Source: a virus. From it: DNA of 38,070 nucleotides. The position numbers and the translations under genes were made by a program. Positions 128 through 27,638 of this stretch are shown here, one piece after another (positions within the stretch are counted from its first letter, which is position 1; each line of letters starts with the position of its first letter). Location of the stretch: the IMG/VR virus record IMGVR_UViG_3300025270_000006, one strand, 5' to 3'. Under the pieces are notes generated by a model, which saw only the letters and a list, made by a program, of their open reading frames with translations, ran no database searches and had not been told where the DNA came from.

Positions 128-3100
128 TATCTAGACTTGGATTAATGAACGCACTACGCGCACCAATTGCTACTCCGATAACTTGGATAAGGTCACCATC
201 ATCACTAGGTATAGTAGTAGTGAGAGTACCTGGAGTTTCGGGAGCATACAGGTCAACTCCAACAGTCATATTACCTCCGAACCCACCATCATCCCTATAG
301 ACACCATGAGTAAGTACACGAACTGAACTTCCCGCAGAACCCTGCGCTTCAATAGCTATCCCTATTACTGGCATCTTGGCAGCATCATTAGCGTCTGCCC
401 TTCCAACTCTGCCTGTCGTTGTACTGACATATACAGCATCAAACTGGGTAATGGCTTCGACTGCAAGAAATTCTATAACAATTCCTTGAACAGTATTATC
501 AGTGGTCGGAGTTCCAGCTGCTGATTCAAACTCAACAAACTTACTGTCAGCAACTGCTACATCACCAGCAAACGAACTAGCACCAAACGCATTAGCCGCA
601 GCAGTAGATGTAATCCCTGCCGCTGAGGTAATACCACCACCATCGGCTATAGTAATGGCATCATCACCATCGGTATAGCTGATCTTGGTGGTCATCACTT
701 CCCCAGGAACCTTCACACCAAGAGCACCGTCTAGTATCCTAAAGCCCTCGTCATCATTGTTATCGGTGAATATAAGGTCTTTTGCATTGGTAACCAGTTT
801 TATGGTCACGTCTCCTGAGTTGCCCTCAGTAAAGCGTAACACTTCTGTGCCACCATCCTCAAAGGTGAGGATTCCGCTCGCTGAATCAAGCTCTATTTGC
901 GCACCAGAATCAACAATGATAGGGTTGGCGGCTATAGTTAATCCAGTAGTGCCATCGTGTGTTAGAGTGGCATCGCTGCCAGCCCCCATGTTGAACACTG
1001 CACTATCAGTCAGTAGGAAAACGTCATCTCCAAACACCGCATCTTTAACTACAGATAATCCACCGTCTGTTTGCAGAGATCCGTCTGTTGTAGACGTTGC
1101 TTCAGTTGCGTCATCCGTCTTAACAATGCCGGATGCAACAATGGTACTGGTTGTTAGGGCTGCCGTTGCTACTGTACCGCCTGCTGCCGTTAGTGTGTTC
1201 GCTGAGTGGGTGAGTGTCATGTCTCCATTATTGAAGTTGATGACACCGCCACTAGCTACAAACAGATCAGACCACATCAGGGACGTAGTGCCTAGTGCAA
1301 CCCCGTCACTAGTTACTGGCGATAGAGCATTTTCTACTAACTCCACCTCGTTAGCATTATTAACTCTAAGAATAATCTTGTTATCAGTAGTGGCAAAGTC
1401 AATTAAATTCTGACTATCTCTACCCATCTTCAAGCTAGTGTTGTATATAGATGAGATAGCAGTTATGTCACCTGATGCACCTAGCGAGTCAGCATAAGCC
1501 TTAACAGATTGCTGTGTTGGAACCAGAGTAGCTGAGTCTGTACTCATATCATCTTCATCAACAAACGCTGTTATAGTTATTGAACCATCTGACAAACTAC
1601 CGAATGTAAGAGTATCAGCGGCTGTTATTCCTCCTGCTGATATATCTGCTAAGTCATATCCTGTACCACCCACGTTTACAGTAGTACCAGGCTCTGCCTC
1701 TACAGCATCAAAGAATGTCCAAGGGTCACCAGTAACACTTTGATCTCTAAAGATACCTGCCCATTTAGCTGTGCCACTTTCTCCGTATTGACCATAGATA
1801 CCAAAGTCTACTGCGTCTGCACTCGTTCCTTGGTCTTTAGCGACCTTCAGTAAGGAGTCTGCTACAGCTACTGTTGTTGAAGTTATAGTTGTTGTTGTAC
1901 CTGATACAGTGAAATCTCCAGTAACCGTGAGGTTGTCTCCGACTATAGTCTCCGATACTCCATGTCCTATCGTAATCGCCGTACCTGAGATACCAGTACC
2001 TATAGACACTGACTCACTACTATTAGCGGTATCAACAATCAAGTAGGCATCAGACCCCTGCTTGATTGTCAGAGCTGTCGCTGAATTATCGCTAACAGCT
2101 ATGTTGATATCTGTGCCATCAGCACTAATACTATCGAGGGCTATATCATTCACATTGGTAATACTGGCATCTCCAAATGAGGTAGCACCAAAGCTGTTAG
2201 CTGCTGCGGTAGAAGTTATGCCTGCTGCTGCGGTGATACCGCCACCATCAGCAATGGTGATAGCGTCATCTCCATCTGTATACTCTATAAGAGGGGTTTG
2301 TATTGCAGTAGCAAATGAACTAGTGCCTGTTGATGTAATTGCACCAGATCCTATAGTACCTATAGTTGCAATATTCTTGCTTCCATCTAACACCACAGCT
2401 TTACTTGCTGCTGCTGTTCCAGCAGTAATACCATCTATCATTTCCAGTTCTGCTTCAGCTATAGAAGCACTACCTATAATGAATGATCCACCTGATGTAA
2501 CATTCCCAGAAGATGTAATCGCCCCAGAACCTATCGTGCCTAACCCACTAACATTGCCACTAGTATCAAATGTATAGTTGCCGTCTGATAGTGTGCCGGA
2601 CAAAGTGATGTTCGTAATGCCTGTTAAGGCCCCATCAAAAGCTACGGCTCCATTGATATCTACCGTAGTATCTGAGGTTATCGTTAGAACTCCGTCAGAG
2701 GACTGATGAATGAATGTGCCTGTATCTCCGAATAGGATTTTCTCTGTGCTATTCATAAGGATCTCATCAGAGAACTTGAAGTAGTCCTCGTCTTCCATCC
2801 ATGTGATAACACCATCATACGTGGTGGCATCAAAGGTGAGAGAGATGTCTGTATTAGCACCTGACCCTATAGTAAGAGCATCTACGTTCATGTCGAATGA
2901 CATAGCACCAGCGTCACTTGATGCAATAGTCCACACCTTGGTCAAAGTGCCTGACTTTCTTACATCGAATTCTATCTGAGCATCCTCATTACCATCTGTC
3001 ACATCTGTTGCCACCGCCGTCATACGAGCAAACTCTTCAATGTCCCCTGCGGAATTAGCTAACTTGAAGGACAAATAAATTTCATCATTGTCAGCCCTGG

Positions 3101-3437
3101 TTGCGTTAGCTCCGCTAAACACAGCTACTTGGTTAGAAACATTATCCTCAAGGTTAGTAAACGTGGCAGCAGGAGTATTCTCGTCAGTATCATTACGGAC
3201 ATCTATTTCCCTGAGAGATATCTGGTCGTTCCACTGAATGTAGCGTATTGAGCTACCTCGTGTAATCTTTATATCGTACCTATCTTGGTCGGACTCGTTA
3301 AAATACCATAGGCCGGCGGCACTGGTAGTCGTTGATGCCTCCTCTGCACCATCCGATTCTTGTAGGAGCTGTACCGTAGCCCCCTGGATAGCACTGCCTG
3401 AGTCATCGAATAAATATCCTCTAAAGTTAATAGCCAT
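111..3437 (-). CDS. Tail fibre / tail-spike-like protein (1108 aa)
   Basis: It is the largest ORF of the distal virion module. The N-terminus looks like a prealbumin/CarboxypepD_reg-type beta-sandwich (FRGYLFDDSGSAIQGATVQLL). The body is G/T/S/A-rich and fibrous, with an internally duplicated 40-aa module. An SD (GGGGGA) lies upstream. Its stop overlaps the next start as TAATG. Confidence 0.7.
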   Translation of the reverse strand: MAINFRGYLFDDSGSAIQGATVQLLQESDGAEEASTTTSAAGLWYFNESDQDRYDIKITRGSSIRYIQWNDQISLREIDVRNDTDENTPAATFTNLEDNVSNQVAVFSGANATRADNDEIYLSFKLANSAGDIEEFARMTAVATDVTDGNEDAQIEFDVRKSGTLTKVWTIASSDAGAMSFDMNVDALTIGSGANTDISLTFDATTYDGVITWMEDEDYFKFSDEILMNSTEKILFGDTGTFIHQSSDGVLTITSDTTVDINGAVAFDGALTGITNITLSGTLSDGNYTFDTSGNVSGLGTIGSGAITSSGNVTSGGSFIIGSASIAEAELEMIDGITAGTAAASKAVVLDGSKNIATIGTIGSGAITSTGTSSFATAIQTPLIEYTDGDDAITIADGGGITAAAGITSTAAANSFGATSFGDASITNVNDIALDSISADGTDINIAVSDNSATALTIKQGSDAYLIVDTANSSESVSIGTGISGTAITIGHGVSETIVGDNLTVTGDFTVSGTTTTITSTTVAVADSLLKVAKDQGTSADAVDFGIYGQYGESGTAKWAGIFRDQSVTGDPWTFFDAVEAEPGTTVNVGGTGYDLADISAGGITAADTLTFGSLSDGSITITAFVDEDDMSTDSATLVPTQQSVKAYADSLGASGDITAISSIYNTSLKMGRDSQNLIDFATTDNKIILRVNNANEVELVENALSPVTSDGVALGTTSLMWSDLFVASGGVINFNNGDMTLTHSANTLTAAGGTVATAALTTSTIVASGIVKTDDATEATSTTDGSLQTDGGLSVVKDAVFGDDVFLLTDSAVFNMGAGSDATLTHDGTTGLTIAANPIIVDSGAQIELDSASGILTFEDGGTEVLRFTEGNSGDVTIKLVTNAKDLIFTDNNDDEGFRILDGALGVKVPGEVMTTKISYTDGDDAITIADGGGITSAAGITSTAAANAFGASSFAGDVAVADSKFVEFESAAGTPTTDNTVQGIVIEFLAVEAITQFDAVYVSTTTGRVGRADANDAAKMPVIGIAIEAQGSAGSSVRVLTHGVYRDDGGFGGNMTVGVDLYAPETPGTLTTTIPSDDGDLIQVIGVAIGARSAFINPSLDIIEHA

Positions 3438-11088: not shown

Positions 11089-14000
11089 TCAAGGCTGATG
11101 ATATTTATATAGCGTCTCTTGTGTGACATCTTCAGATAGTATGTCTCCGAAAAATGACAGAATGGTGGACGTATCCATCGGGTTTCTTTCTATCTGTTGT
11201 AAAACCCCTTGCGTTGTTTGGCCTAACCTAGTTAAAGGGTCAGAGTCCCAACCTGTAGTTACCTGGAGCATAGCATCTACCTTCGGGTTTGCAGCCTGGA
11301 ACTCTATCTTCGCCTCGCGTGCGTTCTTAAGCAAGACTCTGAATAAGTCATTCTTGTGTTCTGTTTTCTTTCTGTCTTTCGAGCTTTGATGTTTCCATTG
11401 GTTATATAGCTCCATTGTTTCTTGGGCGCGTCTGGGATATTGCCTGTTTAGCCTCTCGACAAGATAATTCTTTTCTACTTCATAGTAACCAGACTGTGCA
11501 ATACGCTCAGATATTTCCAGCATAGCACTGGCAACGGGAGGGGCTTCTCGTTTGGCTGACTGTTGTACCCTTAATAGATAGGACGCAATGTCAGAATCCG
11601 CTAGAGTCTTAAACCTCTTCTTCATATCGACCGCCCACTCCTCGAGCTTGCGGTCTCGCTTATCCCAGTCCGGTTCACCCGTGGCTGGGATAATGATGTT
11701 ATCTTCTCCATATAGCTTGTCATAGTAAGACGCCTGGGCAAAGTCATATACATCAACATCAGCGTTAGATAATATACCCAAAGAAGATTCCCGTCCAAAA
11801 GTAAACAGCTCGTCTACACCCCTAAAAGCTCCCTGTGGCCCGGTAAGGGCACGTCTTTTATCTGAAGCCTCTTTACGTATCTCTCGTACATCTGCGTAAT
11901 ATGTTGTTATGTTTTGCATTCCATTAGCTATAAATGCGTCTTCAGCTACCTGTAAAAAATTCTGCTCCTCTACTAAAAGGCGGTCTCGTTCAGCTTTGTA
12001 TCTAGTGTACTCGCTAGCACTATTCCGAACCCTCTCGTCAATCTTAGCCTTTGCCTTCTCCCAATCCTCTGGAGATAGAATATCTGCAAAGCGACCTTCT
12101 TCTGTCATTCTTTTAATGTTCTTGCGATAATCGCCGGCAACCTCAGAGAAGCTTGGCGTCTGGTTGCCCGACAACAATCTCCTGATGCTGAGACTAACAT
12201 CAAAGCCACGCCCATCATTCCATCCACCCTTACCAATGTCCCTTAGATACTCTGCCAGTTCGCCTTCAGTCATACTGAAAGCTTCCTGTAAATCTACATT
12301 GGTCGGGCCTAGTTCCAGAACCGATGCATACACCTCATCCAATGTTTCATTAAGGGATTCATAGCTACTCTTTATGCCAAACAATTGGCCGAGTCCCTGG
12401 CCTGCTGCTGTCGCAATGTCTGCTCCACCACCCAATACATCGCCTTGTCTTATCTGTTGCACCCCTCCATATGTCCTCTGTATTAAGGATTCCTTACCCG
12501 GATCTGCACGGAACAGTTCGTCCCAGGCAAAGGGAATCAGGTGTTCCGCCAAAGTCCCTATTGTTTGTCCGCTCATTAGGCTATCAAAATTACTTACATG
12601 TACTATCTCGCCATCGACTAACTGCTTGCCGACAATAGGACGTGTAGTCTGGCCAATAGCATCCGTGCCCGTAGCAAGATCCATAGCTAGACTTGCAGCA
12701 GGTCCGCTAACTAATCCCCGGAAAGCCTTGAAGCTCTCGTCTATTCCGCCCCCCTCTCCTATGCCATTTGCCACAGCAAAGAATGGCGTTGATGCTATTC
12801 GGAACATTGTATCCCAGGGGCCGAATAAACTAATATCTAAATCCCCTACATGGATACGCATAAAGTTTGGGTTGAAGTGCCACTTACCGGTTGCCTCGTC
12901 TCGTAGCCAGGGACTGATATCTGTTTCTTCTCCCATCGCTTCATTGATAGCAAAGGTAAGGAATGTTGCCGTGCCCATCATTTTACTCATGTATTGTTTG
13001 GCAATGCGTTCCTGTAATGTAGCCCTATCTCCTTTAGCGGCTCCCTTAATAGCATGGCCTGCGAAACTCATTCTGGCGGCAAAGAAGCGTGGTGCAAATA
13101 AGAGGAACTGGCCTATACTGCCACCATACCCACGCTTACCCACACCGGTCATTACGTTTACTATAGAAGATATCTGTGCTGCATCCCCACTATCTATGAG
13201 TTGCTTGGTAGTCATCCCTGTATCCACCATTCGTAATTGCATTTCAGCATCAAAGAGCTGATATCGTAGTACGTTGCCGTAGTGCGTAAATGCTCTGTCA
13301 AAGTTTTTCAAACCAGGAAATTGAGCCATGCGCCTATTAAGGAACATATCCGGGGCATTGCCTAGTATGGCCAACCCAGAACTGGCAGCTTCTAGTGGTG
13401 TTGCCCTACCTGTTTGTTTAGCCAACACATCTTGTAGCTGGAAGAACTCTCCAACAACCTCGGGTCCTGCATGAACAAAAGCTTCCCAGGAATCACGAAT
13501 GGCAGTGATGCCATCACCCCGTCGGTCAGCTACAAGTAAATGCTGACCCCTGCCTGTACCTTTGCGCAACGGGTCTTCTACGACACGACGTAGTGCATCG
13601 TTCATAACCGTAGACCACCCTTGAATACCCATAGCACTCATGTCCCCAGTTGCACCATAGGTTCTCATCAGATTGTTAAGAGCCATATACGCTTTGGCAA
13701 AACCTGATGGATCTGTAGTACGCTTTATAAACTCTTGGCTCTCTATGATGGCGTCTCTAAATAATACCGGGAAATAATGTCCCTCAAGTCCAATGCCGGA
13801 TAACTGGCCCATACGGCCCGTGACCTCTTTTTTCATCTGTTCCATATCACGGGTAGCCTTCTTGAATAATTTTGTAAGTCTCTCTTTCTCGGCCTTGTTC
13901 CAGCCCTTGTTGGTCATCAGGCTATCTATTTCTTTTCTCCACTTAACAAGGCTTGCCTCGAGGCGATCCGTTTCCGCCCGTGCTATCACAGATATATCAA

Positions 14001-17000
14001 TGTCTCCCAAATCGCTAGTGACATTAGGGGTGATTTTACCGGCTGCTTCCATCTCGGCAATAATAACCTCAGCTCTCGATAGGAGACGTGCCTGCCTGCC
14101 ACGGCCCGTCCATTCTCTTCTGGCAACATTCTTTAATAGCCGTTTGATCTCGACCAAGTTAATGTTGTATTTTTTATAAACCTTTTCGCCAACAAGCTGT
14201 GCGACTGTGCCATATCTACCCTTCATGTTTTCATTGGCAATCCGATTAACATACTGGCCCAGCTTTCTGTTCTGCACTATGTTGCCTGCGTATTCCACAA
14301 ACTCACCGTTAGATACAGCAGGACTGGCATACACATGACGAAAGAACATGCCTAGAGCCTGCGAGGGCATCTCTCGTTCTTTCACGGATTTCACTCCCCA
14401 TCTCTTTGGTATATCACCCTGGTCTGATAATTCTAATTCACTCAACCCCCGTGACAACACACCATCATCTTGTACCGATTCTCCCATGACATTACTGGGC
14501 TGATATCCGGCACCTTCATTGTATAAAACGTGGCGAGCTTTGCCAGCTCCGCCAACTCCCTCTTGGATTAATTGCGCCTCATACCTTTTGGGTATCGCGG
14601 CAAGTTCAGACATAATGTCATACGCTGACACCTTGTCTCCTTCTTTGAATCCAAACAACGAACCCCCACGTTTATTAACTCTCCCTATTAGATCCTTGTC
14701 TAGCGTAACAACGGCAGACTTTAATGCAGCTACATATAAAGGTAGTCGCTCCACTACATCACGATATCCCGGCTGTAGAGTCAGGCTTATGTCTTCCCCC
14801 CTCATATTTTTTTTCACATCGCCAGGAGCAATATTCTTATACCTCTGGCCTGCGGGAGTACTGAGGTCAACTATAGAGTTACCCAATACAGTTTGATCTA
14901 TATTGTTGTCTATAAAATATTCATCTGTAAAAGCAAAGTTAATCTGATTGCCCTGTTTCTCTGATAACAATAAGTTCTCTAAGAGTTCCCCCTGGGCGGT
15001 AACAATATTATTGTCCGCATCAAAAGATTGTGCTATGCGCCTTTCAATCGGACCACCCATGTTGGACTTTAATAGTTTAGGAAACAATGCCTGTATTGTG
15101 GCAATCCCAATCCCCGTCTTTTCCCTAACAACGGTCGCATGTCCTTCAACCCGGTTAGCCGTACCGTCAGACCAACTTTTAATCTTGTCAGCAGCTTCCC
15201 TTCCAATCCCCCGTTCATATAATTCTTCTGCGGTCTCAGGTTTTGTCCTTCGTTGAAAAAGATCCGGTATTATTGTGGATTTGCGTCGCAACATGTTGTT
15301 GGCCGTAGCCATTAGATTATTTGTTGCATTAACCGCTGTTTTATCTGCTATGGCCGACTTTACATTTTGATATGTCTGTAGCATTTTGCTACCAAACCCG
15401 GTCCTTGGTGACACCATCTCAATATCCGGTACACCAAAGGTGTTGTCATTGGCAGACGCTTGCTGTGCGGCAAAATCGTTTGCTGCGTTTGGCCTGATGT
15501 CCGGGGTATCAACTAGGCGTTTGGCTTGATGAATATCCACGATAGGCTGTATAAAGTCCCTGGTCACCGCCCCATGTATGCCATTACCAAGTACTGTCTT
15601 GGCAAGTTGATTGCCTGTGTAATCCTTCCCATATTTACCTGGGGGCGGTATAACGAAATCATCAGGAAGGCCCATGTACCTTTTCCACATATCAGGGGTT
15701 GCCCTTATCACTTTCGTCGCTTCATCATCAATCCCTGTTGGCCCTGGCAGAATAATACGTGGCACTTGCCCCTTGGACGCTACAAGTGTTCCCCCTGCCT
15801 GTGGCCCAGCGTACTCCCTAGTATGAAGGTTTCTCCCGGAGTTTCTCGCGTTGGCCTCTTCAAAGACACCTGATCCCCCTGTGGTTAAAATAGGCCGGTT
15901 AGAATCTAGCTTTCCTTCTGCAATCATAGTACGTATTCGGTCTACCTCCCAATGGGTCTCACGGGTGATAGGCCTAAACGCCTGGGCGAGTGACATTGCA
16001 TTACCAGCATCCTCTTCTGCTTTAATTAAATCCTCCAGGTTGTCATACCAGTCTGTCGGACCTGTTTTCTCAGGAAGAGCTGGAAGCTCACCAACATCAT
16101 TGCGAACAGCCCTAAGAAGCATTCTAGGTCTGTGCTGCGACCCACCGTAGTCAGCAGCATTTACTAGTTGTACATCCCATTTATACCCAATAGAATCTGC
16201 ATCTATTGCATCTGTGATTTGCTTAAACAGCAACGTGTTTTGATACTGCGGAACATTTTCTATGGTAATAGTCTTGGGGCTGGTCATGCGTATGTTTCTT
16301 GCCACGGATGTTGCGATGGCATAATCATTCTCGTCAACTATCCGGTTGGGATTTATTAATGAAAATTTCTTACAAACTGGAGAGGCGTGGTAATGCTCGG
16401 CATTAGAAGCGATCAGTGACTGCAAGGAAGCATCATCAGCAATGCTCCTCGCGGTGAAGTTCGTTCCATGTGCGATATTGAACGCCTGGATAATCTCTGG
16501 ATCATATTCATCAACGTGTACATTAACGTAAGAACCTGGTTTTAGGCCTCCAGCAAGTGTGCCAGTACCAGCCATAGACTCCGCTAGGCGTACTACCGTG
16601 GTAACTGGTGCGGTAACTGTGCCTTCCACTTCTTGTCGAGGCAAAACCCAAGTCGGATTGTCGAGCTGTTCTTCAAACATTTCATCGTAGAAGACATAAT
16701 CAAAAGGTACGCCTTCAATATGTCCGCTGTTCACGGCATCATCAACTGCTTGCTTTGCAGTTGCGTTAACCTGATCCATGGGCAGGCCCTCTTCCTGTGC
16801 CTTCCTGCGGAACTTATTAACCATAGTTTCAAGTCCCCTAAATGTTAGCCTGGTACCGGCAATGCCACCTCGGACGCCAGTAAAGGCTGCTTTAAAAGGT
16901 GCTGTTATTATGCGCCCTGCAAGATCATCAATACGTTTAGGAATTAATAATGCTTGTCTGGTTGCTTCTGTGGTAGCCCTTACCGTATTACGTGCAGCTT

Positions 17001-17685
17001 GTTGAGCCAGGGTATCAGCTCCCATCTGAGCTGCTTTCCTAGCACCTAGCCTTGCAACAGTCTTTGCGGCAAATGCCGTGCCCCCGGTTAATACCGTCTC
17101 TCCAATACCGGCTGCCACTTCCGTTGGCAGTTCAACAAGCATCCTGTTAGAAAACTCTACCGGCCCAACCTTATGGCGTTCTGTTAGCCAGGGCATTGCT
17201 ACATCCTGGACTTGCGCCATGATATCGTATTCTTCTGTCATCGTGGGATTACGGCCTTCACGATCACGAAAGGCCTGTTTGTCTGCCTCGACTTGTGCCC
17301 CAAGCTCTACATTACGAGAAGGATCTAGCCTCTCCCCCCAGCTCTCTGGCATTCCACCAGGCTTTAATCCAAACCCAGACGAAACATCCGCCCCGATATC
17401 TAAAATATCGCTTCCATACTCTCTTGCTCCATGCCATAACATACCGCCTATTCCGCCCTGCTCGTAGGCCTCTTTCAATTCTCCGATTCTCTGAATCTCC
17501 TCAACCGCAGCACGGCGAGGATATTCCATAGCAGCCTGTGCCGGCTTGCTCTGGAGAATAGGCGCAAGATATTTGCCCGCCAAATTCATTCCCGTCTGGG
17601 GAATAGGCCGGGCTTGTCGTTCTTCCCTCTGCCGCCGTTGTTCTGCCATCTGGCGTAGTTTTTCTCTTTGTTCTTCGCTAGGCAT
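11089..17685 (-). CDS. Giant virion-module protein (2198 aa), polyvalent/internal-virion-type, with an embedded C5 DNA methyltransferase domain
   Basis: This is a single uninterrupted ORF between the portal-proximal genes and the scaffold gene. Its ATG overlaps the upstream stop as TAATG. Residues about 365-715 carry the full C5-MTase motif set (see the domain feature). I recognised no motif in the remainder. Confidence 0.85.
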   Translation of the reverse strand: MPSEEQREKLRQMAEQRRQREERQARPIPQTGMNLAGKYLAPILQSKPAQAAMEYPRRAAVEEIQRIGELKEAYEQGGIGGMLWHGAREYGSDILDIGADVSSGFGLKPGGMPESWGERLDPSRNVELGAQVEADKQAFRDREGRNPTMTEEYDIMAQVQDVAMPWLTERHKVGPVEFSNRMLVELPTEVAAGIGETVLTGGTAFAAKTVARLGARKAAQMGADTLAQQAARNTVRATTEATRQALLIPKRIDDLAGRIITAPFKAAFTGVRGGIAGTRLTFRGLETMVNKFRRKAQEEGLPMDQVNATAKQAVDDAVNSGHIEGVPFDYVFYDEMFEEQLDNPTWVLPRQEVEGTVTAPVTTVVRLAESMAGTGTLAGGLKPGSYVNVHVDEYDPEIIQAFNIAHGTNFTARSIADDASLQSLIASNAEHYHASPVCKKFSLINPNRIVDENDYAIATSVARNIRMTSPKTITIENVPQYQNTLLFKQITDAIDADSIGYKWDVQLVNAADYGGSQHRPRMLLRAVRNDVGELPALPEKTGPTDWYDNLEDLIKAEEDAGNAMSLAQAFRPITRETHWEVDRIRTMIAEGKLDSNRPILTTGGSGVFEEANARNSGRNLHTREYAGPQAGGTLVASKGQVPRIILPGPTGIDDEATKVIRATPDMWKRYMGLPDDFVIPPPGKYGKDYTGNQLAKTVLGNGIHGAVTRDFIQPIVDIHQAKRLVDTPDIRPNAANDFAAQQASANDNTFGVPDIEMVSPRTGFGSKMLQTYQNVKSAIADKTAVNATNNLMATANNMLRRKSTIIPDLFQRRTKPETAEELYERGIGREAADKIKSWSDGTANRVEGHATVVREKTGIGIATIQALFPKLLKSNMGGPIERRIAQSFDADNNIVTAQGELLENLLLSEKQGNQINFAFTDEYFIDNNIDQTVLGNSIVDLSTPAGQRYKNIAPGDVKKNMRGEDISLTLQPGYRDVVERLPLYVAALKSAVVTLDKDLIGRVNKRGGSLFGFKEGDKVSAYDIMSELAAIPKRYEAQLIQEGVGGAGKARHVLYNEGAGYQPSNVMGESVQDDGVLSRGLSELELSDQGDIPKRWGVKSVKEREMPSQALGMFFRHVYASPAVSNGEFVEYAGNIVQNRKLGQYVNRIANENMKGRYGTVAQLVGEKVYKKYNINLVEIKRLLKNVARREWTGRGRQARLLSRAEVIIAEMEAAGKITPNVTSDLGDIDISVIARAETDRLEASLVKWRKEIDSLMTNKGWNKAEKERLTKLFKKATRDMEQMKKEVTGRMGQLSGIGLEGHYFPVLFRDAIIESQEFIKRTTDPSGFAKAYMALNNLMRTYGATGDMSAMGIQGWSTVMNDALRRVVEDPLRKGTGRGQHLLVADRRGDGITAIRDSWEAFVHAGPEVVGEFFQLQDVLAKQTGRATPLEAASSGLAILGNAPDMFLNRRMAQFPGLKNFDRAFTHYGNVLRYQLFDAEMQLRMVDTGMTTKQLIDSGDAAQISSIVNVMTGVGKRGYGGSIGQFLLFAPRFFAARMSFAGHAIKGAAKGDRATLQERIAKQYMSKMMGTATFLTFAINEAMGEETDISPWLRDEATGKWHFNPNFMRIHVGDLDISLFGPWDTMFRIASTPFFAVANGIGEGGGIDESFKAFRGLVSGPAASLAMDLATGTDAIGQTTRPIVGKQLVDGEIVHVSNFDSLMSGQTIGTLAEHLIPFAWDELFRADPGKESLIQRTYGGVQQIRQGDVLGGGADIATAAGQGLGQLFGIKSSYESLNETLDEVYASVLELGPTNVDLQEAFSMTEGELAEYLRDIGKGGWNDGRGFDVSLSIRRLLSGNQTPSFSEVAGDYRKNIKRMTEEGRFADILSPEDWEKAKAKIDERVRNSASEYTRYKAERDRLLVEEQNFLQVAEDAFIANGMQNITTYYADVREIRKEASDKRRALTGPQGAFRGVDELFTFGRESSLGILSNADVDVYDFAQASYYDKLYGEDNIIIPATGEPDWDKRDRKLEEWAVDMKKRFKTLADSDIASYLLRVQQSAKREAPPVASAMLEISERIAQSGYYEVEKNYLVERLNRQYPRRAQETMELYNQWKHQSSKDRKKTEHKNDLFRVLLKNAREAKIEFQAANPKVDAMLQVTTGWDSDPLTRLGQTTQGVLQQIERNPMDTSTILSFFGDILSEDVTQETLYKYHQP
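15541..16593 (-). other. C5 cytosine-DNA-methyltransferase domain inside the giant protein (about aa 365-715)
   Basis: The motifs are in canonical order and in one frame: I (MAGTGTLAGG), II (VDEYDPEIIQAFNIAHG), IV (SPVCKKFS; cca gtt tgt aag aaa ttt checked at 16361-16380), VI (TIENVPQY), VIII (GGSQHRPRMLL), IX (IRATPDMWKRYMGLPDDF) and X (VLGNGIHGAV). Confidence 0.8.
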
Positions 17686-24570: not shown

Positions 24571-24762
24571 TTACATACTTACATAATTACATTTACGGGT
24601 CTTATAGAGACCCGAAATGTAATGTAATTTGTAACTTACATAATAATTACATGTAATTACATTGTAACTAGTCACGAATTACATGTAAGTTACAACCAGT
24701 TACATTGTAATTCCTAGATCCTTGTAACAATCCCATGTAATCCTATGTAATTACTAACATAG
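24571..24762. promoter_or_regulatory. Dense array of TTACAT/ATGTAA half-sites and palindromes upstream of terS, either operators or a pac/terminase recognition array
   Basis: TTACAT occurs at 24571, 24579 and 24587 with exact 8-bp phasing. A hairpin GGGTCT-tatag-AGACCC lies at 24597-24613. A perfect palindrome AATTACATGTAATT lies at 24645-24658. TTACATTGTAA occurs at 24657 and 24700, TTACATGTAA at 24679, and ATGTAA at 24735 and 24745. Confidence 0.6.
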
Positions 24763-25063
24763 GAAGACATATAAGTCAATCTACATTGCGTAATAATGAA
24801 TACATTGTGGACGTAGCGCGTTGCCGGGAGGCCTTTTAGCGGAAAATTTATTGTCAGGGGTATCCATGTACTATCCCAACTCCACCCAAGCCCTACCCCT
24901 CCCCCCTGATTGCTGACGATTATGTGTTCTAAAGTGCGATGTTGCTGCCCTAGGTGTATGAGACCGCCCATTGTTGTCGCTCCGCTCCGTTGCCCAGCCT
25001 CCTGTCCACCCCCGGATGATGCTACTGGTGATGTTCTCCCATGTGTTGTCTCTAGTGTCTGTA

Positions 25064-25107: not shown

Positions 25108-25156
25108 GTGGTGTGTTGTGTGAGGGTGCCGGGTTCATGCTCGGGCCCGGGCTCGG

Positions 25157-25201
25157 GGTTCCTAGGGTTCCTGGGATGCCTGGGATGCCTGGGATGACAG
25201 G
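25157..25201. repeat. Degenerate 9-bp tandem repeat, five units (GGTTCCTAG GGTTCCTGG GATGCCTGG GATGCCTGG GATGACAGG)
   Basis: Read directly in the intergenic control region. Confidence 0.85.
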
Positions 25202-25370: not shown

Positions 25371-25399
25371 TGGACATTCGGCTATCATGAGCGTATAAT
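25371..25399 (+). promoter_or_regulatory. Candidate sigma70-type early promoter (TGGACA, 17-bp spacer, TATAAT)
   Basis: The -35 TGGACA is at 25371-25376 and the -10 TATAAT at 25394-25399, 47 nt upstream of the first plus-strand gene. Confidence 0.5.
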
Positions 25400-25445
25400 C
25401 TAGAGGTAGGCCAAGCTTACAAATACAAAATTGTGGAGTGTGAAC

Positions 25446-26282
25446 ATGGTAACAAGAGCGGAATTGATAGAATTCGCCGAGGCGGCGATTAACAACCCGG
25501 ACGGCCTCGGCCATGGGGCCCCGGCCCATTGGGGCCCGAATTGGAAACGGGCCCACAGTAAATTCACGGAATTCACGGCCACAGGTCAACCACAATGGAA
25601 TATATTCGTCAAAGGCAATTCCAAGTTAAAGTTTTGGCAGTTTTCCACACTGCCAAAAATATCTTGCCCAGGGGCGGGTGACTGTCTAAATTGGTGTTAT
25701 AGTTTCAAGGCTTGGCGGTATCCTGATGCATACTTTAGACAATTACAGAATACTATTCTGATTATGAATAAATCCGAACATATCACGAATGCATTCTTAA
25801 ACTTACCAACAAATGAGACCATCCGTTTATATGTTGACGGCGATATAGACAGCCTGGACACTCTCGAATTTTGGTTTGATCTATTGGCCAAACGGCCCGA
25901 CTTGCAAGTATATGGATACTCCAAGTCATGGGCCGTGTTCCTAGCATATGACAAAACTGGCCAACCTTGGCCAACAAATTATATGCTTAATTTATCAGGT
26001 GGTAGTAAATACAACGGCCAATTACGGGCCCATATGGAACAATTGCCAATTGTCCGCGGGGAATTCGTCGCAGTTACGGCACCCTTTAAAATGCCTAACA
26101 AACTAGACACGCCGACACTATGGGCACAATGGGCAAAAGTAGTAAAAGAATCAGCGCGTAAACTTGGATATGCAAATTCGTTTGTATGTCCGGGCAAATG
26201 TTACGCATGCCTACCTAATCAAGAGCATGCTTGCGGATCTTGGAAGTTTAAAAATATTCCTGTAGTTATAGGCATACATTAA
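25446..26282 (+). CDS. GP88-family-like phage protein (278 aa from the ATG at 25446), function unknown
   Basis: FSTLPKISCPGAGDCLNWCYSFKAWRYPD and IRLYVDGDIDSLDTLEFWFDLLAKRPDLQVYGYSKSW match my memory of the GP88 family (tCPGA..C...CYA ... GDf.s..y ... YTKs). A GGAG SD lies 7 nt before the ATG at 25446; the ORF track starts at a TTG at 25431. Confidence 0.6.
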   Translation: MVTRAELIEFAEAAINNPDGLGHGAPAHWGPNWKRAHSKFTEFTATGQPQWNIFVKGNSKLKFWQFSTLPKISCPGAGDCLNWCYSFKAWRYPDAYFRQLQNTILIMNKSEHITNAFLNLPTNETIRLYVDGDIDSLDTLEFWFDLLAKRPDLQVYGYSKSWAVFLAYDKTGQPWPTNYMLNLSGGSKYNGQLRAHMEQLPIVRGEFVAVTAPFKMPNKLDTPTLWAQWAKVVKESARKLGYANSFVCPGKCYACLPNQEHACGSWKFKNIPVVIGIH

Positions 26283-26300
26283 AAATTGATCTGGTCCATT

Positions 26301-26327
26301 GGAATTCTGGAAATTTTCCAGAATTCC
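26301..26327. promoter_or_regulatory. Perfect 13+13 bp palindrome GGAATTCTGGAAA-T-TTTCCAGAATTCC
   Basis: I checked the pairing base by base. It lies 19 nt after the stop of the GP88-like gene and has no U-tract, so it is more likely an operator or RNA hairpin than an intrinsic terminator. Confidence 0.6.
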
Positions 26328-26468
26328 AGAGGAGCTTAGGCCAAATCCGAAAACGTGGCCATGAGCAATGAATACATTATGAAAGGGGGCGAAAATATTA
26401 GACCGAGACACATTGCGACTAGCAACCTGATCCGAGGAACAATTAATACAGAATAGAAAGAGGTAACA

Positions 26469-26600
26469 TTGAATTCTAAACAAGCTATCGACCAGGGATT
26501 TATCCCATACCCATACACATTCCCGGCCATTAAATTTGTAGTGGTCGAGGATATAAAAGCAGTGAATACAAAACAGAAAGAGGTGACGGCAACAGATTAA
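26469..26600 (+). CDS. Possible TTG-initiated micro-ORF (43 aa)
   Basis: I translated this by hand: (M)NSKQAIDQGFIPYPYTFPAIKFVVVEDIKAVNTKQKEVTATD. An AAAGAGG SD lies 6 nt upstream. The stop abuts the hammerhead motif. Confidence 0.3.
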   Translation: MNSKQAIDQGFIPYPYTFPAIKFVVVEDIKAVNTKQKEVTATD

Positions 26601-26658
26601 TCGCCCTGACGAGACCGAGTGGCTCCCGGTCGAAACACCCCCCGGGGGGTGTAGGCGA
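26601..26658 (+). ncRNA. Type I hammerhead self-cleaving ribozyme candidate
   Basis: The arrangement is TCGCC (stem I), CTGACGA (core C3-A9), GACCG.G/C.CGGTC hairpin (stem II, G10.1:C11.1), GAA (G12-A14), ACACCCC-ccgg-GGGGTGT hairpin (stem III, A15.1:U16.1 and C15.2:G16.2), A (H17, 26653), GGCGA (stem I partner). Every invariant core position is satisfied. Predicted cleavage is between 26653 and 26654. Confidence 0.8.
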
Positions 26659-26689
26659 GAGCCATAAATACAGTATAGGAGTAGAACAT

Positions 26690-27265
26690 ATGGGAAAGAT
26701 TAAGAGACTAGTAGAGGAGAATCCACACGGGATATGCGAGGCAATGGTTGACTCGCTCCAGACTACCATTAAGACATTACAGGAAAGAACTAATACGAAT
26801 TCTTATACAGTCAGAGTCTATTGCGATAGGCAAGGGGTCGAGGTTGAGGAAGTAGTTAACCTACCAGACCACATTGCAACAAGTTTGTCCATCATCGGGG
26901 TTGTTGCTAGGGTGATGACCATTGCTGAACAACAACATAGCGGACAGTGTGGAACTAAACATGATCCATGTATATCTGAAGGAATAGCCAATGCATCCTT
27001 TAGGCTAGACCCCAAACAGGAACAGAGTATGACTGAAGAAAAAACATTTATTCACTATGACACAAGAACACCTCTTGGATTAGAGATACTAGAAGAAGAA
27101 GTCTTTGACCTACAAGTTATATTGGAGAACTTTGGTACAGGTGAAGGAGATTTGAAGGTAGAGTATCCAGAATTTTACACATTCCTAATGACTGCAAACG
27201 TAGGTGATAGCAAGTCTGGTATGTATGGACAGGGAACGTATGACTGTTGGAAGCGAATATCTTAA
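26690..27265 (+). CDS. Hypothetical early protein (191 aa)
   Basis: An AGGAG SD lies upstream and this is the first ORF downstream of the ribozyme. No motif was recognised. Confidence 0.65.
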   Translation: MGKIKRLVEENPHGICEAMVDSLQTTIKTLQERTNTNSYTVRVYCDRQGVEVEEVVNLPDHIATSLSIIGVVARVMTIAEQQHSGQCGTKHDPCISEGIANASFRLDPKQEQSMTEEKTFIHYDTRTPLGLEILEEEVFDLQVILENFGTGEGDLKVEYPEFYTFLMTANVGDSKSGMYGQGTYDCWKRIS

Positions 27266-27282
27266 AGAGAGAGGAGAAAATA

Positions 27283-27522
27283 ATGGTTGATCCAATAAGT
27301 CGGGAAGAGAAAGTCTTGAGAGCTGTACGCAAGATGTTAAGCGATCACTATGACATCAGTGAATACAACCTGGAAATAAACATCAGTGGTGGTGCAACCC
27401 GGATCAATATAATCCTGATGCCCACCCAGGAGCAGTTTCCGGAACAGCACTGTAGCGTTCACGGCGTTCAATTAGGCCGAGGTTGGCACGGGCCGAAAGA
27501 CTGCGAAGGGGGTGAGAGTTAA
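27283..27522 (+). CDS. Hypothetical early protein (79 aa from the ATG at 27283)
   Basis: A GAGGAGAAAA SD lies directly upstream of the ATG at 27283. The ORF-track TTG start at 27247 overlaps the previous gene. Confidence 0.6.
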   Translation: MVDPISREEKVLRAVRKMLSDHYDISEYNLEINISGGATRINIILMPTQEQFPEQHCSVHGVQLGRGWHGPKDCEGGES

Positions 27523-27539
27523 AACAATTCAAGATCCGA

Positions 27540-27571
27540 GGGGTGGTCACTAAGGACCACCCCTTTTTTTT
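27540..27571 (+). terminator. Rho-independent terminator closing the first early transcription unit
   Basis: A 9-bp GC-rich stem (GGGGTGGTC / GACCACCCC) with a 6-nt loop is followed by eight T residues (27564-27571). Confidence 0.85.
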
Positions 27572-27638
27572 GGGCCGGGCAGGTGGTGCACTCTGCACCG
27601 TTTACCCGACCCAATGAATACAGAACAGGGGGTGAGCC

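Follow-up and report, generated by a model that had tools for sequence, protein, structure and literature searches.

A predicted type I hammerhead ribozyme in the early operon of an uncultured deep-ocean phage, bordering a variable gene cassette

What would a complete-looking hammerhead ribozyme be doing between two early genes of a phage, and is it likely to cut the RNA in which it lies? The question is raised by positions 26601-26658 (plus strand) of a 38,070-nt viral DNA, here called the window, i.e., the whole stretch that was analyzed. This DNA belongs to an uncultured deep-ocean virus whose terminase is <30% identical to that of any cultured phage. Broadly speaking, we put the probability at about 80% that 26601-26658 is a catalytically competent type I hammerhead, stabilized by a pseudoknot and belonging to a subclass common in phages, which cuts the early polycistronic RNA. 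In addition, comparison with relatives suggests that the hammerhead and the leader behind it behave as a portable module, which also appears to form the edge of a swappable gene cassette.

From 5′ to 3′ on the plus strand, the element consists of the first strand of stem I (UCGCC, 26601-26605, hammerhead positions 2.5-2.1), the catalytic core from C3 to A9 (CUGACGA, 26606-26612, N7 being C), the stem II hairpin (26613-26631, five pairs between GACCG and CGGUC including G10.1:C11.1, then an A.C mismatch, with a 9-nt loop II), the core residues G12, A13 and A14 (GAA, 26632-26634), the stem III hairpin (26635-26652, seven pairs between ACACCCC and GGGGUGU around a CCGG loop), A17 of a GUA triplet (26653), and the second strand of stem I (GGCGA, 26654-26658, positions 1.1-1.5). 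This order, with stem I open and stems II and III capped by loops, identifies the topology as type I. Hammerhead numbering places the predicted scissile bond at 26653/26654, and GGCGA would form the 5′-OH end of the downstream RNA. A preliminary description of this locus, made from the sequence alone, had listed the hammerhead elements at these same plus-strand coordinates, and reading the sequence confirmed all of them; the first strand of stem I and the stem III hairpin were also recovered by a structural scanner and by folding, and the stem II hairpin by folding.

The details next to the core fit the consensus as well. CUGACGA matches C3 U4 G5 A6 N7 G8 A9 throughout, GAA is followed by A15.1:U16.1 (A26635:U26652) and then C15.2:G16.2, and nucleotide 17 is an H (A26653, not G). 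No mispair lies beside the core (G26654:C26605, G26613:C26631, A26635:U26652), the absence of mispairs at N1.1-N2.1, N10.1-N11.1 and 15.1-16.1 being the acceptance criterion of Perreault et al. (2011; PMC3088659). For the isolated 58-mer, the three-helix junction is both the minimum free energy and the centroid structure (−25 kcal/mol). With 84 nt of context, the nested minimum is a non-hammerhead fold built on the helix 26619-26625:26659-26665; this is the pseudoknot helix discussed below, which cannot coexist with stems I and II in a nested fold. When both strands of the window were scanned with structure taken into account, exactly one type I site was found, and the other CUGANGA...GAAA sites (2770 and 13920 on the minus strand, 32706 on the plus strand) were ruled out as they have no stem II hairpin. 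Overall, the window almost certainly holds a complete type I hammerhead, predicted to be a genuine self-cutting RNA.

Relatives of this phage are scarce. A search of GenBank phage DNA with positions 25400-27600 gave no match, and IMG/VR searches with the proteins encoded on either side (a GP88-like protein upstream, a 191-aa protein downstream) returned no relatives. The 191-aa protein search led to four deep-ocean metagenome contigs of ~37-38 kb (L001-L004, ~100% identical) which, being identical to the window, add nothing on covariation. Contigs identical to the window over the compared stretches (~4-6.6 kb) stem from both ENA and JGI samples, the 191-aa protein is indexed in 55 collection blocks, mostly in contigs of 20-50 kb, and the identical contigs suggest a complete genome of about 37-38 kb. 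Deep-ocean samples in which this contig occurs include JGI 3300025280 and 3300008216. The structural module of this ~38-kb genome contains a single 2198-aa open reading frame (11089-17685, minus strand). Lineage-specific DNA patterns had zero matches in the metagenome_contigs and genome_contigs collections, which do not hold the window lineage, since even the window's own JGI contigs went unmatched there; exact-pattern scans of IMG/VR and metagenome_contigs likewise did not return the window genome.

A diverged relative was found in L005, a 4.1-kb ENA contig with 76-94% DNA identity to the window in shared blocks. It carries two hammerheads (copy a at 2417-2474, copy b at 2759-2816), each 36 nt before an ATG, so that the reachable data hold three distinct copies of this exact lineage. 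These copies differ in ways that preserve the helices: in copy a, stem I changes from UCGCC:GGCGA to UCGUC:GACGA and stem II from GACCG:CGGUC to GAUUGG:CCAAUC, both compensatory, and in copy b the A.C mismatch of the window's stem II becomes a G:C pair. Every core position is unchanged in both copies. The two L005 hammerheads lie 342 nt apart and flank a single, unrelated 83-aa gene (L005:2417-2816). Six loci of more distant phages with a GP88-family gene yielded no hammerhead at E ≤ 1, and the element is thus dispensable for the clade, i.e., an accessory module.

To place the element in a wider class, a search pattern built from its conserved parts (CTGANGAG...CGAAACACCCC) was run on IMG/VR. 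It matched 71 loci, 58 of which hold complete type I hammerheads, often 2-5 per contig and including copies that do not themselves fit the pattern. A custom covariance model (R1), built from 40 phage hammerheads, none of them of the window's lineage, scores the window element at 55 bits with an E-value of 2e-14 to about 1e-14, a value that is inflated and partly circular because the search that supplied the training sequences used a pattern based on the window motif. The second-best R1 match in the window (11 bits) is the palindromic stem III read on the opposite strand, and the hammerhead is single-copy here. Across an alignment of 101 phage hammerheads, including the window's, CUGA.GA and GAA are invariant, 98.9% of cells are paired, 10 of the 12 pairs have changed on both sides, and the covariation score reaches 0.84, as compared with 0.20 when shuffled and at most 0.115 when partners are slid; the alignment was fitted to the model, which favors the structure, but the margin is large nonetheless. 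The relatives back the helices both within L005 and across the class. At position 17, C predominates in the sister set and the window has A.

No Rfam family matched the window at its gathering score (RF00163, RF00008, RF02276, RF03152 and others). The best Rfam match came from local searches with RF03152 (RAGATH-1-hammerhead; 24.3 bits, E 0.03, and 26.3 bits, E 0.004), i.e., well under its gathering score of 56.3. The hammerhead part of that model (positions 26-77) matches 26601-26658 over its full length and keeps stems I and III and the core in register, whereas for its 5′ hairpin (positions 1-25) no convincing equivalent is seen at 26581-26600, the pairs there being non-standard and the matches few. 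RF00163 (Hammerhead_1) shares the topology of the window element but scores it below the gathering score, and Hammerhead_3 gives a mis-registered match of 21 bits against a gathering score of 48.5. The covariance-model check proposed in the preliminary description therefore came out divided, negative at Rfam gathering scores and positive for the partly circular R1 model and for the local RF03152 matches. When the Rfam 15 gathering thresholds were applied to 13 sister loci (L005, L009, L017, L026, L029, L041, L043, L044, L053-L056 and L070), they found 1 of ~30 structurally perfect phage type I hammerheads, namely L044:1140-1199 with Hammerhead_1 (36.7 bits vs. 34). Failure at these thresholds is thus uninformative for the window element, as the same thresholds reject ~29 of 30 perfect sisters, and annotation pipelines will under-report this phage subclass for the same reason.

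The genomic setting is that of a compact early operon, all on the plus strand. It starts with a sigma-70-like promoter candidate (TGGACA-17-TATAAT, 25371-25399) which agrees with the consensus at 11 of 12 positions, a consensus match only, in a region whose total of promoter-like sites does not exceed that of shuffles. The first gene (25431-26282) belongs to the GP88 family (Pfam PF17338, E 9e-17), with gene callers placing its start at 25446 on identical contigs (278 aa). A 43-codon putative open reading frame (26469-26600) then occupies a variable cassette slot, and its TAA stop (26598-26600) directly abuts stem I, as the preliminary description had noted for a micro-ORF ending at 26600. Downstream, the leader runs for 36 nt from G26654 to A26689, up to the ATG at 26690, and is conserved in both L005 copies, where the spacing is identical; the remainder of this leader (26666-26689) contains an AAUACAG motif (26666-73) and a Shine-Dalgarno sequence (AGGAG, 26677-81) 8 nt before the ATG. 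Once released, the leader is predicted to be essentially unstructured. The first cistron after the cut encodes 191 aa (26690-27265, with no family and no solved relative) and the second 79 aa (27283-27522, or 91 aa if it starts at the TTG at 27247); searches for Pfam, PHROG or PDB relatives of these two downstream genes found none. The unit ends at a strong intrinsic terminator (27538-27575) with an 11-bp GC-rich stem (27538-27565), a 6-nt loop and a run of eight T. The promoter-to-terminator operon first sketched for this locus agrees with these consensus scans (25371-25399; 27538-27565 plus T run), which also list a second promoter-like site at 27764-92. Stem III was ruled out as a terminator, having no T run behind it and being absent from the terminator scan.

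Several other features of this region are worth recording in their own right. A palindrome with near-perfect 19-nt arms (TCCATTGGAATTCTGGAAA / TTTCCAGAATTCCAGAGGA, 26295-26333) lies 13 nt past the stop of the GP88-family gene with no T run after it, and rather than ending transcription it may stabilize the RNA or serve as a site for RNase III or for protein binding. A recurrent (A/T)(T/G)AATACA motif is found ~20-25 nt before early-gene start codons, with a Shine-Dalgarno sequence rich in purines behind it (repeat families D1, D4 and D6), with plus-strand copies between 25421 and 28066 at ~25421, 26370, 26444, 26564, 26666, 27616, 27671 and 28048; RAATACAD occurs 18 times vs. 9.3 expected, 15 of the 18 being on the plus strand. 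This motif might serve as a module for translation initiation, as a processing site or as a phage-specific promoter. Its copy at 26564 falls within the 43-codon open reading frame and is not followed by a start codon, which gives the impression of a cassette lost from this place. Between the packaging and early modules, the divergent intergenic region (24620-24770 and 25155-25190) is dense in direct and inverted repeats of the TTACATTGTAA / ATGTAATTAC type (D3, I1, I2, I8 and I9) and holds an 18-nt unit in three copies that overlap at an offset of 9 nt (GGGTTCCTA / GGGATGCCT-like), which may represent operator or origin-type sites. A partial duplication of the 191-aa gene within 26355-26600 (repeats D5 and D16) was considered and dropped, the best tblastx E-value being 0.06.

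The position of the hammerhead between genes is shared by its sisters. Among 74 unique phage hammerheads, 51 follow an open reading frame (≥40 codons) whose end lies −1 to 15 nt before stem I, and 66 have an open reading frame start within 120 nt after the cut (median 31.5 nt). With 0 nt to the upstream stop and 36 nt to the ATG, the window element looks like a typical intercistronic member of the class. The initial suggestion of a type I core lying between early-operon genes, 36 nt ahead of the ATG of the 191-aa gene, is thus borne out by the sequence, the covariation in L005 and the models.

Where the hammerhead sits relative to gene replacement is a further observation. Homology between L005 and the window extends up to 26468, at the start codon of the 43-codon open reading frame, and resumes at 26600, i.e., at the 5′ edge of the hammerhead. 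Between these blocks, 131 nt in the window are replaced in L005 by ~1.3 kb of wholly different sequence, which comprises genes of 154, 72 and 76 aa, hammerhead copy a and the unrelated 83-aa gene, so that only the hammerhead and leader are duplicated in L005, and not the gene behind them. It is from this duplication, and from the location of the hammerhead exactly at the border of a variable slot, that the module appears portable. Comparable patterns occur in other IMG/VR phages: in L023/L053 homology restarts twice at hammerhead edges, L055 differs from L009 by an extra 334-nt hammerhead-plus-gene unit (about 2740-3131) bordered by hammerhead copies, and in L044/L054 a gene has been replaced directly after the hammerhead and leader. 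Homology breakpoints thus fall at hammerhead edges in four phage pairs that are independent of one another and, as identity exceeds 90% on one side whereas the sequence on the other is unrelated, alignment places the recombination joints at or next to the hammerhead module. Separately, the 191-aa protein (26690-27265) and its 181-aa counterpart (L005:2848-3393) are 93% identical over their first 107 residues and unrelated in their C-terminal halves, which indicates that a domain was exchanged within the first gene after the ribozyme.

These observations lead to the alternative that survives best, in which the main role is played at the DNA level: the ~95-nt hammerhead-plus-leader repeat would serve as a homology patch through which accessory cassettes are swapped, gained or lost, and RNA cleavage would be secondary. 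The exact coincidence of the window/L005 breakpoint with the hammerhead 5′ edge at a 1.3-kb cassette difference, the duplication around the 83-aa gene, and the hammerhead-bounded indels and replacements of the other three pairs all fit this reading. However, breakpoints beside any conserved element are partly expected, as BLAST alignments start where conservation starts, and if the repeat were no more than a recombination patch, 13 catalytic nucleotides would not stay invariant as the stems covary. We therefore regard a primarily DNA-level role as possible but unlikely, and stress that the two roles are not mutually exclusive. The preferred reading, co-transcriptional cutting of the early polycistronic RNA, is most likely the principal role of the element.

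Pseudoknots are an established means of keeping stems I and II parallel, known from hammerheads of all three types (PMC3088659). The preliminary description had proposed that GGC (26588-90) extends stem I by pairing with GCC (26661-63) across an internal loop; with 3 bp, this pairing is not above chance and competes with a better-supported one, and we rejected it. In its place, loop II (GUGGCUC, 26619-26625, with UGGC at 26620-23 as its core) is complementary to GAGCCAU just 3′ of stem I (26659-26665, core GCCA at 26661-64), through the pairs G19.U65, U20-A64, G21-C63, G22-C62, C23-G61, U24-A60 and C25-G59 (positions 266xx), so that the loop of one stem pairs with sequence attached to the other. 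Both strands covary in L005 (UUGAC:GUCAA in copy a, UGGCU:AGCUA in copy b). In the subclass in which stem I has 5 bp and stem II spans 17-19 nt, loop II has its partner 1-3 nt past stem I, with wide covariation (e.g., UAGUU:AACUA, UGGAU:AUCCA, UUGAC:GUCAA, UGGU:ACCA, GCGG:CCGC). Over 29 distinct combinations, the longest complement between loop II and tail averages 4.48 nt vs. 3.64 ± 0.15 with tails permuted, a value reached in 0 of 2000 permutations, and 23 of the 29 have a complement of at least 4 bp vs. 14 ± 2.2 when permuted. On these comparisons, the predicted tertiary stabilizer is the pseudoknot between loop II and the 3′ tail.

The same 3′ strand also has complements upstream, which raises the idea of a conditional ribozyme. 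Here, GAGCCAU would pair either with loop II, giving the active form, or with an upstream segment (GGC 26588-90 in the window, UUGAC and GGCU in the two L005 copies), and cutting would then depend on translation of the upstream open reading frame or on another factor. All three lineage copies carry such a complement 7-10 nt before stem I in upstream sequence that is otherwise unrelated, a ribosome terminating at the stop that adjoins stem I would cover this segment, and regulated cleavage in phage hammerheads was raised as a possibility by Perreault et al. (PMC3088659). The complements are only 3, 5 and 4 bp long, though, and only the 5-bp one is improbable by chance (~5% by our own estimate). 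In the full set, complementarity between upstream sequence and loop II, to which this permutation was confined, does not exceed permuted controls (3.35 vs. 3.32), and no pairing of upstream sequence with the 3′ tail was seen by eye in three other subclass members (L041, L043 and L026). Such switching thus seems improbable, clearly more so than the DNA-level role.

On the preferred reading, the following sequence of events may be proposed. The early operon would be transcribed from the promoter-like site at 25371-25399 to the terminator at 27538-27575, with stems II and III folding as the RNA emerges and stem I closing once 26654-58 has been made. UGGC of loop II would then dock on GCCA (26661-64) and lock stems I and II side by side, and the RNA would cut itself between A26653 and G26654. 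The upstream piece, carrying the GP88-like gene and the small open reading frames, would end in the folded ribozyme with a 2′,3′-cyclic phosphate, and the downstream piece, with the 191-aa and 79-aa genes, would begin with a 5′-OH and a fixed, unstructured 36-nt leader containing the Shine-Dalgarno sequence. The stability and translation of the downstream accessory genes could in this way become independent of the upstream sequence. The motif, its fold, the covariation, the pseudoknot, the gene context and the homology breakpoints were read directly, and it is from these that we infer cleavage and an effect on expression. Such an effect agrees with the processing role proposed for prophage hammerheads, tandem copies of which cleave ~2-kb polycistronic transcripts in vitro, and with a mapped transcript end in haloviruses, described below (PMC3088659).

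Two further explanations can be set aside more quickly. The first is that paired cleavage and ligation yield RNA that is circular or spliced, as happens with retrozymes and viroid-like RNAs. RNA with 5′-OH and 2′,3′-cyclic phosphate ends is the substrate type of RtcB-like ligases, and the two L005 hammerheads would release an RNA of the 83-aa gene with just such ends, a monocistronic product that could in principle be ligated into a circle. Against this, the single hammerhead of the window excises no unit, and circular or spliced products of tandem prophage hammerheads were sought by Perreault et al. and none was found (PMC3088659), so that we give this explanation very little weight.

The second is that the element is a look-alike devoid of ribozyme function, in which GC-rich hairpins flank CUGANGA and GAA by accident. 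A loose hammerhead sequence pattern is not rare within the window, energy z-scores are weak (−0.83 for the 58-mer, −1.18 for 84 nt), the Rfam scan at gathering scores was negative, and 26 of 2000 dinucleotide-preserving shuffles of the window (1.3%) contain a type I hammerhead if stems of at least 3 bp are allowed; yet only 1 of these 2000 has all stems at 4 bp or longer, as compared with the observed 5, 5 and 7 bp, the gene context is shared with 74 other phage hammerheads, and the two L005 copies compensate in stems I and II and in the pseudoknot with 13 of 13 core positions fixed, a covariation which already makes an accidental origin very unlikely.

How does the element compare with known systems? 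The preliminary description had mentioned that hammerheads are known from phage and prophage genomes, and indeed intergenic type I hammerheads flanking phage and prophage genes, many of them with a stabilizing pseudoknot, were already described in 2011 (Perreault et al., PMC3088659). Like these, the window element has a consensus core, three stems of which stem I is open, and a pseudoknot, and it lies between same-strand genes, whose identity varies from case to case and for which processing of polycistronic RNA was proposed; unlike these, it occurs as one copy per genome rather than in clusters, and it has A17 (GUA). A second comparison is the HHphage hammerhead of haloviruses HF1 and HF2, found 13 nt before the first gene of an early polycistronic unit, where the mapped 5′ end of the early transcript falls within 3 nt of the cleavage site (PMC3088659). 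Both are early-region hammerheads just upstream of a gene, but the HHphage core carries an atypical insertion and the ribozyme requires high salt, whereas the window core is fully consensus. The window element is thus a further example of a hammerhead class common in phages, not a new type of element, and its importance is modest as the phenomenon was described in 2011. An engineered parallel may be drawn with RiboJ, the insulator that Lou et al. are said to have derived in 2012 from a satellite RNA ribozyme, and which reportedly cuts off variable upstream RNA to leave a constant 5′ leader. The likeness is a functional analogy only, both being hammerheads placed before a ribosome-binding site, and implies no membership.

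The main additions made here are the observation of the hammerhead at cassette borders and the finding that Rfam thresholds miss a subclass. Beyond these, the locus offers a clean example for the long-standing question of what hammerheads do in phages, with a consensus core, a single copy and a compact promoter-terminator unit, and L005, in which the module is duplicated around an inserted gene, provides the natural comparison. It is tempting to speculate, though tentatively and at the risk of being wrong, that the hammerhead and its fixed 36-nt leader constitute a mobile regulatory cassette, which travels with or recruits accessory genes, insulates each newcomer with a standard 5′ end and, as repeated DNA, serves as a cassette-exchange junction between marine phages. 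The coincidence of homology breakpoints with hammerhead edges makes the idea of ribozyme modules as cassette junctions testable on large viral datasets. Promoter/stem-loop cassettes reportedly drive modular shuffling in T4-type phages, and a mobile hammerhead cassette would, if real, be their RNA-processing counterpart.
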